Assembly (NCBI RefSeq): GCF_057098645.1
Contig: NZ_CM169472.1
DNA length: 64,000 nucleotides
Direction: 5' to 3' (one strand)
Shown: one piece after another, positions 13,901-16,900 of the stretch
Position numbering within the stretch: position 1 is the stretch's first letter
Layout of the letters: every line of letters starts with the position of its first letter
Program-made: the position numbers

Positions 13901-16900
13901 TGCAGAAATAATCTCGCCTGAACTGAAGCGGATACCGACGGGGAGAAATAATGATACGCCCCACGCAGCAGGCCATTTTCGCGGCTTAGTTGCCAGTTAC
14001 GCGAAAAATAGGGGTCCACCAGCTTTTCGCCTTCCGTCGCCTTAATAAAAGCAAACTGTAAGCGGATACCGTTGTCGCGCATTTTTGCCACCCGCTGCCA
14101 GTCGATCCGCTCCTGCCAGCGCGAAACATCTATTCCGTGAATGGTGTAACTGGCAGGAATGCGAATAGCGAAAGATTTAACCGGGCGATAACCGTAGAAG
14201 TGGATGTAGTCTGTAATCTGAACTGCTGTCGAATAGAAAAAATTCACCGTCTGACGCGGATAAATTGCAACGATGGAAATTAGCCCAAGAGCGCATAATA
14301 GAGAGGTGAGTTTTTTTCGACTGGTAATTCTTAGCTGCATTGGTTTCATCCCTGAATGTCAGTGCCAAAGGCTGACAATAACCAAAGCAGCTATAGTACG
14401 GTGCTCACCACCAGGCGTGGAAGTGGTGAACCGGACCAATACCGTGACCAACTTCCAGCGTGTCGGCCTGGGCTAACGCCGATGAAAGCCAGCTTTTTGC
14501 CTCCTGTACGGTGTCAGCCCAGTTTGTATGGCGCGGGCGTAGTGCAGCCAACGCCGCAGAGAGTGTACAACCAGTGCCGTGGGTGTTTTTGGTCATAATG
14601 CGCGGTGCGGTAAACCGTTGTTCACCCTCGCGGGTAAACAGCCAGTCCGGGCTTTGCTCATCATCCAGATGACCACCTTTCATTAGCACTGCGCCACAGC
14701 CCATCGCCAACAGCGATCGCCCTTGTTCCAGCATTTCCTGTTCGGTGCGCGCGTGTGGCGCGTCGAGCAAGGCGGCAGCTTCGGGCAAGTTTGGCGTTAT
14801 TAATGAAACCTGTGGCAATAATCGACTGCGCAGCGTAGCAACCGCCGAAGGTGAAAGCAGCGGGTCGCCGCTTTTTGCCAGCATAACGGTGTCGAGTACC
14901 ACGTTTTGGATCTGATAACGTTGCAACCGTTCTGCCACCGCTTCAACAATATCGGTTTCCGCCAGCATACCGATTTTAGTGGTATCGATTCGCACATCGC
15001 TGAACACCGAATCGAGCTGGGCGGCGACAAAATCAGGCTCAATGCGATACACCGACTGTACGCCACGGGTATTTTGCGCCACCAGTGCAGTAATAACTGA
15101 GCAACCATAAGCGCCAAGTGCCGAGAAGGTTTTAAGATCGGCCTGAATCCCCGCACCACCACTCGGATCAGTACCGGCAATCGTCAGAGCGTTAATTCGT
15201 TTCATGCCTGCACCTCCTGCGTCAATTGCCAGAGCGCATCAAGGAAATGTGGAACAAAACTGCCTGGCCCCTCGCTTCTGGCGACTGCGCGTTCTCCGGC
15301 TTGTTTCATCCAGTGACAGGCAGATGCGACATTTTCCAGCGTATCGCCTGGTAACGCACAGCAGGCAGCGACAACCGCCGATAATGCACAGCCAGTTCCT
15401 ACCACTTTGGTCATTAACGGATCACCACCGTGAATACCAATGATACGATGTCCATCGGTAACATAATCCATCTCGCCAGTGACCACGACGATTGCGCCAG
15501 TTTCCCGTGCCAGTGTTTGTGCAGCGGGTATCGCGTTAGCTGCGGCGTCAGTGGTATCCACTCCCCGTCCGCCATTAGCAATGCCAGCTAATGCCATGAT
15601 TTCCGAAGCATTACCACGTATCGCTGCCGGTTTAAAAGATAAAAGTTCATGACAAAAATGGCGGCGATAATCGAGCGCACCCACCGCTACTGGATCAAGC
15701 GTCCAGGGTGTTTGAGCGCTTTTTGCTTGCTCAACGGCAGCACGCATCGCCTGAGCGCGTGGCTGCGTCAGTGTGCCAACGTTAATCAACAAGGCACTGG
15801 CGATAGCCGCAAACTGACTGGCCTCTTCGGTTTCGATAACCATCGCTGGCGATGCACCGAGCGCCTGCAAGGTATTGGCGGTAAAGGTTTGCACCACATC
15901 ATTGGTCATGCAGTGCACAAGAGGGGAATGTTGGTGAAAAAGGTGTAACGCGTGCGCAGATTGCGCTGAACCCAGCAGGTCGACTTGCATAGTTTGCTCC
16001 TGCCATAACGTGAAGAAGCAATGACCTGGTGGTCCGTGACTTCCCTACGCTGGCATTATCCAGATCAGGTGATACGGGTATTTCTCAGCCTTCACGCAGA
16101 AGGGCACCCCGAGTCGTTTGGTTGCGATGATAAATCGCAGAGGAGGATGGTAATGTCCAGCGCACGCGTTGTAAACGAGGAAAAACGGCAGTTTTACAAT
16201 CGCGTTAATAAATTATTTGATATATGAATCCAGCACCTTCAGAACGACATCCAGATCTTCTTCACGTTTTAGCTCATCCCCCTGGTGAACGATGTGTTCC
16301 GTCAGATGACCTTTAATCACTTCCCGCATCAGACCGTTTACCGCGCCACGGATAGCAGCAATCTGTTGTAAAACTGCAGCGCATTCGTGCGGCTCGTCGA
16401 GCATTTTCTTGAGCGCCACGACCTGGCCCTGAATCTTACTGGCACGCGCTTTCAGTTTCTGTTTATCACGGATTGTATGAGACATGGCAACACCTGGTTA
16501 ACAAGAATATGAAAAATCATAGCACTATTAATCTACTGGGGGGTAGTATCAGGTACTGGGGGGGAGTAGAATCAGATTGCCGAATTAATACTAAGAATTA
16601 TTATCATGACCGAATGTACAACTCTTCTTCAGCAAGGAAACGCCTGGTTCTTCATCCCCAGCGCCATCTTACTTGGTGCGCTTCATGGCCTGGAACCAGG
16701 GCACTCAAAAACGATGATGGCGGCGTTTATCATCGCCATCAAAGGCACCATTAAACAAGCGGTGATGCTCGGACTGGCAGCAACTATTTCGCATACCGCA
16801 GTGGTCTGGTTAATTGCCTTTGGCGGGATGGTGATCAGTAAGCGCTTTACTGCTCAATCAGCAGAACCGTGGCTCCAGCTGATTTCCGCAGTGATCATTA

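Follow-up and report, generated by a model that had tools for sequence, protein, structure and literature searches.

The window analysed here, a stretch of 64,000 nucleotides from contig NZ_CM169472.1 (assembly GCF_057098645.1), almost certainly carries the E. coli thiM TPP riboswitch, which lies on the minus strand in the 5′ leader of thiMD and acts through translational and Rho-dependent control. Judged by its sequence, it is the thiM riboswitch that is already known and characterised in E. coli. The aptamer match, the gene context, the identity with K-12 and the two alternative folds were established here; published work on the identical sequence is the source for TPP binding, translational repression and Rho dependence. 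On the minus strand, the whole regulatory unit would reach from the inferred transcription start at about 16140 down to 15972.

The first-pass annotation had placed a TPP riboswitch in the thiM leader and named a covariance-model search with the Rfam TPP family as the means of checking it. A scan of the whole window with Rfam 15 at gathering thresholds matched RF00059 (TPP) exactly once, leaving no other TPP riboswitch in the 64 kb. The match runs over the full model (positions 1-105 of 105) and lies on the minus strand at 16121..16025. Its score of 71.2 bits exceeds the gathering score of 54.3, and its E-value, calculated for 64 kb on both strands and 4227 families, is 5.1e-12. The ThiM open reading frame lies directly downstream on the same strand, and the proposal is thereby borne out. 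The same scan also recovered an OrzO-P antitoxin RNA match at 35083..35158, in the yehI-yehK-yehL region, and a naRNA4 match at 8170..8100.

The regulated gene, thiM (15202..15990, minus strand), encodes a hydroxyethylthiazole kinase of 262 aa, which is recognised by the NCBIfam equivalog models TIGR00694 (336.4 bits, cut-off 256) and NF006830 (328.7 bits). It is followed by the operon's second gene, thiD, encoding HMP/HMP-P kinase (14405..15205, minus strand; TIGR00097, 362.6 bits), with which it overlaps by 4 nt. Upstream of thiM lie rcnR (16485..16213, minus strand) and the divergent rcnA (16606..17430, plus strand). A consensus scan found a promoter-like site for thiMD at 16147..16175 on the minus strand, composed of TTTACA, a 17-nt spacer and TACCAT with 9 of 12 consensus matches; the site is sigma-70-like, and its -10 hexamer ends 7 nt upstream of 16140. 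Bastet et al. 2017 (PMC5499598) designate the ribosome-binding-site mutation G142C and the start-codon mutation U152A; transferred to the window, their numbering sets nt 1 at 16140, AGGAG at nt 140-144 and AUG at nt 151-153 (15990..15988). From the paper's numbering and the promoter-like match, we infer that thiMD transcription would start at 16140, and the riboswitch leader accounts for the 150 nt that separate the promoter from the start codon. The "165 thiM" numbering of Rentmeester et al. 2007 (PMC1920254) runs 15 lower than the one used here, so that its Shine-Dalgarno residues G126, G127 and G129 correspond to G141, G142 and G144. Near its 5′ end the leader contains a hairpin, UGCGAUUUAUCAUCGCA (16123..16139, minus strand, nt 2-18), which is predicted in every fold and is present in the leaders of E. 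coli and E. albertii and absent from those of other genera. A separate predicted hairpin (16204..16165, z = -2.4) follows the rcnR stop and precedes the thiM -35 element.

The aptamer core, taken from P1 to P1 in the pair list, occupies 16115..16038 on the minus strand (nt 26-103). P1 consists of the four Watson-Crick pairs G26-C103, A27-U102, C28-G101 and U29-A100, with one additional non-standard C25·A104 at its outer end, and P2 extends from C30-G66 to G33-C63; in the pair list on the window sequence, P1, P2, P4 and P5 are made of standard pairs throughout. The thi-box and flanking helices had been described as recognisable directly in the sequence, and they can indeed be read on the minus strand. 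CUGAGA, the pyrimidine-sensing junction of the thi-box that closes P3, is found at 16088..16083 (nt 53-58) and is the same in all 44 thiM leaders that were aligned. The P4/P5 pyrophosphate-sensor arm (16044..16069, nt 72-97) has the sequence ACCUGAUCUGGAUAAUGCCAGCGUAGGGA at 16070..16042, which agrees with the RF00059 P4/P5 pattern ACCUGAUC..GG.UAAU.CC..CG.AGGGA; all eight of its pairs are standard here and invariant across the 44 leaders. Every sequence-level defining feature of RF00059 that could be examined is present, and TPP binding has been reported for RNA of identical sequence (PMC1920254, PMC2018614). The thiM AUG follows 35 nt after the end of the RF00059 match and 47 nt after the end of the P1-to-P1 core. 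The interval first proposed for the element, 15995..16112, carried no strand, which can now be given as minus; it does span the expression platform as far as the Shine-Dalgarno, but its upper bound drops 3 nt of the 5′ strand of P1, and its lower bound of 15995 falls beyond the aptamer, within the platform, between the Shine-Dalgarno (16001..15997) and AUG.

The earlier judgement that this is a known element was also correct. A 256-bp leader query was found in 5424 of 5426 complete E. coli genomes, and the leader of the window is 100% identical to that of K-12 MG1655 and of several thousand other E. coli genomes, with RefSeq annotating a "riboswitch / TPP riboswitch" at the equivalent MG1655 position. 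In a base-by-base comparison with the MG1655 locus, 13 substitutions were found in 3256 bp, 10 of them in rcnA, indicating that the window is not MG1655 itself; there are zero differences over 16615..15867, which covers transcript nt 1-274. The notion that the match is a chance or decayed one, a thi-box lookalike without function, has a negligible probability. A score 17 bits above the curated threshold with an E-value of 5e-12 argues against a chance match, the pairs of P1, P2, P4 and P5 are all intact, the sequence is that of the experimentally characterised K-12 element, and the aptamer is nearly invariant in the 44 Enterobacterales thiM leaders while the flanks diverge. No support for such a lookalike was found, nor any evidence contradicting the identity of the element as the thiM TPP riboswitch.

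Given this identity, the expression platform was examined by folding nt 1-172 either unconstrained or with the Rfam aptamer pairs enforced. In the free minimum-free-energy fold, hereafter ON, the 3′ half of the aptamer (16037..16055, minus strand, nt 86-104) forms the 5′ strand of an anti-sequestering stem and pairs with a platform segment at 16001..16020 (minus strand, nt 121-140), covering the anti-Shine-Dalgarno CUUCU within that segment (16018..16014, minus strand, nt 123-127) and leaving GGAG single-stranded. With the aptamer forced closed (OFF), CUUCU pairs with the Shine-Dalgarno AGGAG (15997..16001, minus strand, nt 140-144), which lies 6 nt upstream of AUG and includes G142, the ribosome-binding-site position mutated in PMC5499598. 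This pairing is held inside an 11-pair hairpin of nt 120-130 with nt 136-147, and an outer sequestering helix of nt 109-118 (16032..16023) with nt 160-169 (15981..15972) on the minus strand reaches thiM codons 4-7 and encloses AUG. The mean unpaired probability of GGAG falls accordingly from 0.64 in the free ensemble to 0.00 with the aptamer closed. The two predicted folds are thus mutually exclusive and coupled to aptamer closure, which is the arrangement of a translation-controlling platform.

The predicted ON pairing agrees with what Rentmeester et al. 2007 (PMC1920254) derived from chemical probing, where nt 71-86 of the 165-thiM numbering (offset 15) pair with nt 108-125. The residues whose chemical reactivity shifts on TPP addition in that study, U39-A43 and G60, map onto CUGAGA and onto G75 here, respectively, and the coding nucleotides 151-172 are counted as part of the expression platform in PMC5499598. 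Nearest-neighbour energies place the ON fold about 5-11 kcal/mol lower than the OFF fold, varying with transcript length and with the aptamer constraint, so that the OFF state relies on ligand and tertiary energy outside the model; this preference fits a switch that would need ligand and tertiary energy, or co-transcriptional binding. Compared with shuffled sequence, the whole leader shows no gain in stability (z = -1.09), an uninformative value that would be usual for RNA with two competing folds.

Downstream of the platform, thiM codons 14-25 form a C-rich, G-poor tract (15917..15951, minus strand, nt 190-224), recognised by its base composition as the rut region, with 32-36% C and 4-8% G in 25-nt windows; it is identical to that of K-12. 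On this sequence, Rho was reported to protect nt 201-210 (window 15940..15931) and to terminate in vitro at nt 231, 237 and 262 (window 15910, 15904 and 15879), and TPP to reduce thiMD mRNA in a manner that needs codons 20-34 (PMC5499598). A purely translational riboswitch, in which the ribosome-binding site is hidden and the mRNA drops passively, for example by decay, with no dedicated Rho step, was the original thiM model (introduction of PMC5499598); it would account for the sequestering fold reproduced here, and the approximately two-fold shorter mRNA half-life with ligand in the same study indicates that decay contributes. Against it, bicyclomycin abolishes the TPP-dependent repression of transcriptional fusions, thiM codons 9-34 confer regulation when moved to btuB (PMC5499598), and the window retains the complete C-rich, G-poor tract. 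The published experiments with bicyclomycin and on termination in vitro already largely refute this model, and we regard it as unlikely for the present element.

Many TPP riboswitches of Firmicutes act by intrinsic-terminator attenuation, in which TPP binding lets a terminator hairpin form in the leader, and the commonness of this mode is what speaks for considering it here. A terminator scan of 15800..16600, however, found no terminator-like stem with a U-run on either strand, and the hairpin of the aptamer-closed fold contains the Shine-Dalgarno and is followed by AAACUAUG rather than by a U tract. Attenuation of the Bacillus type is therefore rejected for this leader as very improbable, and the empty scan fits control by translation and Rho instead. 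The presence of the tract, together with the lack of a leader terminator, is what would be expected of indirect Rho termination of the thiM type.

Taken together, the sequestering folds and the published Rho data support a mechanism of translational repression followed by Rho termination on the untranslated message. In this mechanism, the thiMD mRNA would begin near 16140 and nt 26-103 would fold into a three-way-junction TPP aptamer. When TPP is scarce, nt 86-104 would pair with nt 121-140, so that CUUCU is occupied, AGGAG and AUG are open, and thiM and thiD could be translated. When TPP is bound, the aptamer would close via P1 and the freed CUUCU would pair with AGGAG, while the outer helix of nt 109-118 and nt 160-169 would enclose AUG and block translation initiation. 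The ribosome-free message could then expose the C-rich tract in thiM codons of about 14-25 to Rho, which would stop transcription around codons 27-38 and leave less thiMD mRNA.

A degenerate pattern of the thiM-type aptamer, applied to one genome per species, matched at least 120 loci, and 50 of the matches listed, almost all from Enterobacterales, are followed by a ThiM homologue within 400 nt. In an alignment of 44 thiM leaders taken from the matches listed, the aptamer is almost invariant and the flanks diverge, so that leaders of Citrobacter, Enterobacter, Kosakonia, Pantoea, Erwinia, Serratia, Pectobacterium and Edwardsiella, among others, carry an aptamer nearly unchanged from that of E. 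coli. P3 has compensatory double changes at three pairs, in 3 of the 44 leaders (Kluyvera, Enterobacter sp. ENT03 and a Pluralibacter MAG). P1, P2, P4 and P5 do not vary, but the search pattern fixed many of those bases, and partly for this reason their invariance adds no independent covariation evidence; the Rfam model already incorporates covariation at the family level.

The other Enterobacterales retain the pyrimidine block CUUCUU and the (G)GGAG ribosome site, whereas their linker and outer sequestering helix differ from those of Escherichia. Across the 44 leaders, 76% of cells are paired in the helix with the CUUCU:AGGAG core and 74% in the anti-sequestering stem, most of whose pairs are largely kept; the outer helix into the reading frame, with 18-52% of cells paired, is limited to Escherichia and Kluyvera. 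Covariation counts on the ON and OFF structures are informative only for P3 and the CUUCU:AGGAG core. In a simple equilibrium calculation of Shine-Dalgarno accessibility, free against aptamer-closed, a clear switch was not reproduced outside Escherichia, with a median unpaired probability of 0.27 vs 0.26 in 43 orthologous leaders. These accessibility values count neither for nor against conservation of the platform. With no clear switch in the calculation and no conservation of the outer helix, the platform model is secure only for Escherichia. In many other genera, alignment and folds show CCUGNCCGG pairing with CCGGNCAGG so as to cover the ribosome site in its 5′ part. On inspection, both strands of this helix appear to change between Siccibacter (U/A) and Kosakonia (C/G). 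The folds suggest that a different sequestering helix might be used in many genera. These orthologue results bear on the diversity of platforms and not on the element of the window.

Beyond the riboswitch itself, the leader is matched only in part in some E. coli genomes, with about 300 split matches among the 5426, and these genomes draw attention to the aptamer DNA as a place of integration. In NZ_CP043852.1, an ATCC 8739 record, two annotated TPP riboswitches enclose an island of approximately 8.9 kb (1818.3-1827.2 kb) whose products are an integrase, a GmrSD-type endonuclease, HTH proteins and a recombinase. The direct repeat on either side of the island is 82 bp long and corresponds exactly to leader nt 17-98 (window 16124..16043). 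In NZ_OZ197100.1, the leader match stops at nt 98 and a tyrosine integrase gene follows. In NZ_CP043539.1 (O157 strain Al Ain), prophage genes precede thiM and the leader match starts at nt 56, with the thiM-side aptamer scoring 36.9 bits, below threshold. A 42-bp core (16084..16043) is common to the rcnR-side junction of NZ_OZ197100.1 and the thiM-side junction of NZ_CP043539.1, and an aptamer-to-integrase junction occurs in at least 126 of 5426 complete E. coli genomes (about 2%).

On the grounds of the partial leader matches, the flanking repeats and the integrase junctions, the aptamer DNA is read as an attachment site, and it is probable that the 82 bp encoding the aptamer (16124..16043) also serve tyrosine-integrase islands and prophages of E. 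coli in this way. The repeat comparison shows the site to be unoccupied in the window, where a tRNA scan found no tRNA and hence no tRNA-type attachment site nearby. The 42-bp att core has no match in 50,697 phage records, and a full-text literature search of limited reach returned no description of thiM as a prophage integration site. Attachment within aptamer DNA would, by analogy, parallel integration into tRNA genes. If this reading is true, integration leaves the integrase gene downstream of the thiM promoter and of a TPP aptamer that is nearly complete, and the thiM-side riboswitch would be rebuilt by the 82-bp repeat and broken by the 42-bp repeat. Integration inside an aptamer could interest studies of integration-site choice, as well as those asking whether lysogeny rewires thiamine regulation; it concerns other genomes and not the window.

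For the window, the significance of the finding is that of a correct annotation only, which identifies the leader through which thiMD is regulated. The thiM riboswitch serves as a textbook model of ligand-induced RNA folding, as a drug-target prototype and as the reference case for translational repression coupled to Rho-dependent termination, and the copy described here, an ordinary though correct finding, leaves that established picture unchanged.

The closest known system is the thiM riboswitch of E. coli K-12, which we take to be the RNA of the 2006 aptamer-TPP crystal structure, PDB 2GDI. The window shares with it an identical promoter region, leader, aptamer and platform, the first 41 thiM codons and the same gene order of rcnR, riboswitch, thiM and thiD, with no difference within the element. 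Relative to the RF00059 consensus, thiM is without the variable P3a insertion, 11 model positions being deleted in the alignment. The thiC and thiB (tbpA) riboswitches of E. coli have the same aptamer family and ligand as thiM and, according to PMC5234074, PMC11487190 and PMC10578472, combine control of translation initiation with control at the mRNA level; they are other loci that lie outside the window, in keeping with its single RF00059 match.

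Comparison with K-12 MG1655 over 3256 bp gave 13 differing positions, so that the window comes from a different strain of E. coli. Of these differences, rcnA accounts for ten (stretch concerned: window 16616..17680); the region from rcnR through the riboswitch to the thiM start contains no differences from MG1655. The interval from the rcnR stop codon to the thiM promoter carries an imperfect inverted repeat, CGCGAUUGUAAA...UUUACAACGCG (window 16165..16204, minus strand), which overlaps the -35 hexamer of the thiM promoter. Its RNA gave a fold better than those of 199 of 200 shuffles (z = -2.4), and a U-tract is absent after the repeat. 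This element could be the end of the rcnR transcript or a protein-binding palindrome.

Two further Rfam matches were found in the window. One covers the full length of the OrzO-P type I antitoxin RNA model (RF02083; 35083..35158, plus strand; 99.9 bits, E 2e-15) and sits within the yehI-yehK-yehL region, where several genomes that are identical elsewhere contain IS insertions. The other, naRNA4/CssrE (RF02564; 8100..8170, minus strand), scored 64.5 bits (gathering score 59.5) and corresponds to a REP-type repeat RNA.

The thiM aptamer is interrupted by integrase-bearing islands or prophages in other E. coli genomes, and an aptamer-to-integrase junction was present in at least 126 of 5426 complete genomes of this species. 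The inserted elements are bordered by direct repeats of aptamer DNA, of 82 bp or 42 bp, and once they are inserted, the integrase is preceded by the promoter of thiM and an almost complete aptamer; where the repeat is 42 bp, the thiM-side aptamer scores under the Rfam threshold. The window holds the empty, unoccupied attachment site (16043..16124). The corresponding positions in loci from other E. coli genomes are 19941-20036 and 28841-28937 in L124, 2595-2760 in L122 and 2480-2600 in L123.

The inferred thiM transcript begins with a small predicted hairpin at nt 2-18 (window 16123..16139, minus strand) that falls outside the aptamer; it is conserved in E. coli and E. albertii and not retained in other genera. 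Many Enterobacteriaceae have, in place of the Escherichia-type outer sequestering helix, a 10-bp helix, CCUGNCCGGC / GCCGGNCAGG (columns 132-200 of the alignment of 44 thiM leaders; e.g. L056 and L059, leaders from other genera). This helix appears to have changed on both sides, with U/A in Siccibacter versus C/G in Kosakonia, as read from the aligned leader sequences and their folds. Across the thiM leaders compared, the aptamer is fixed while the expression platform has diverged.
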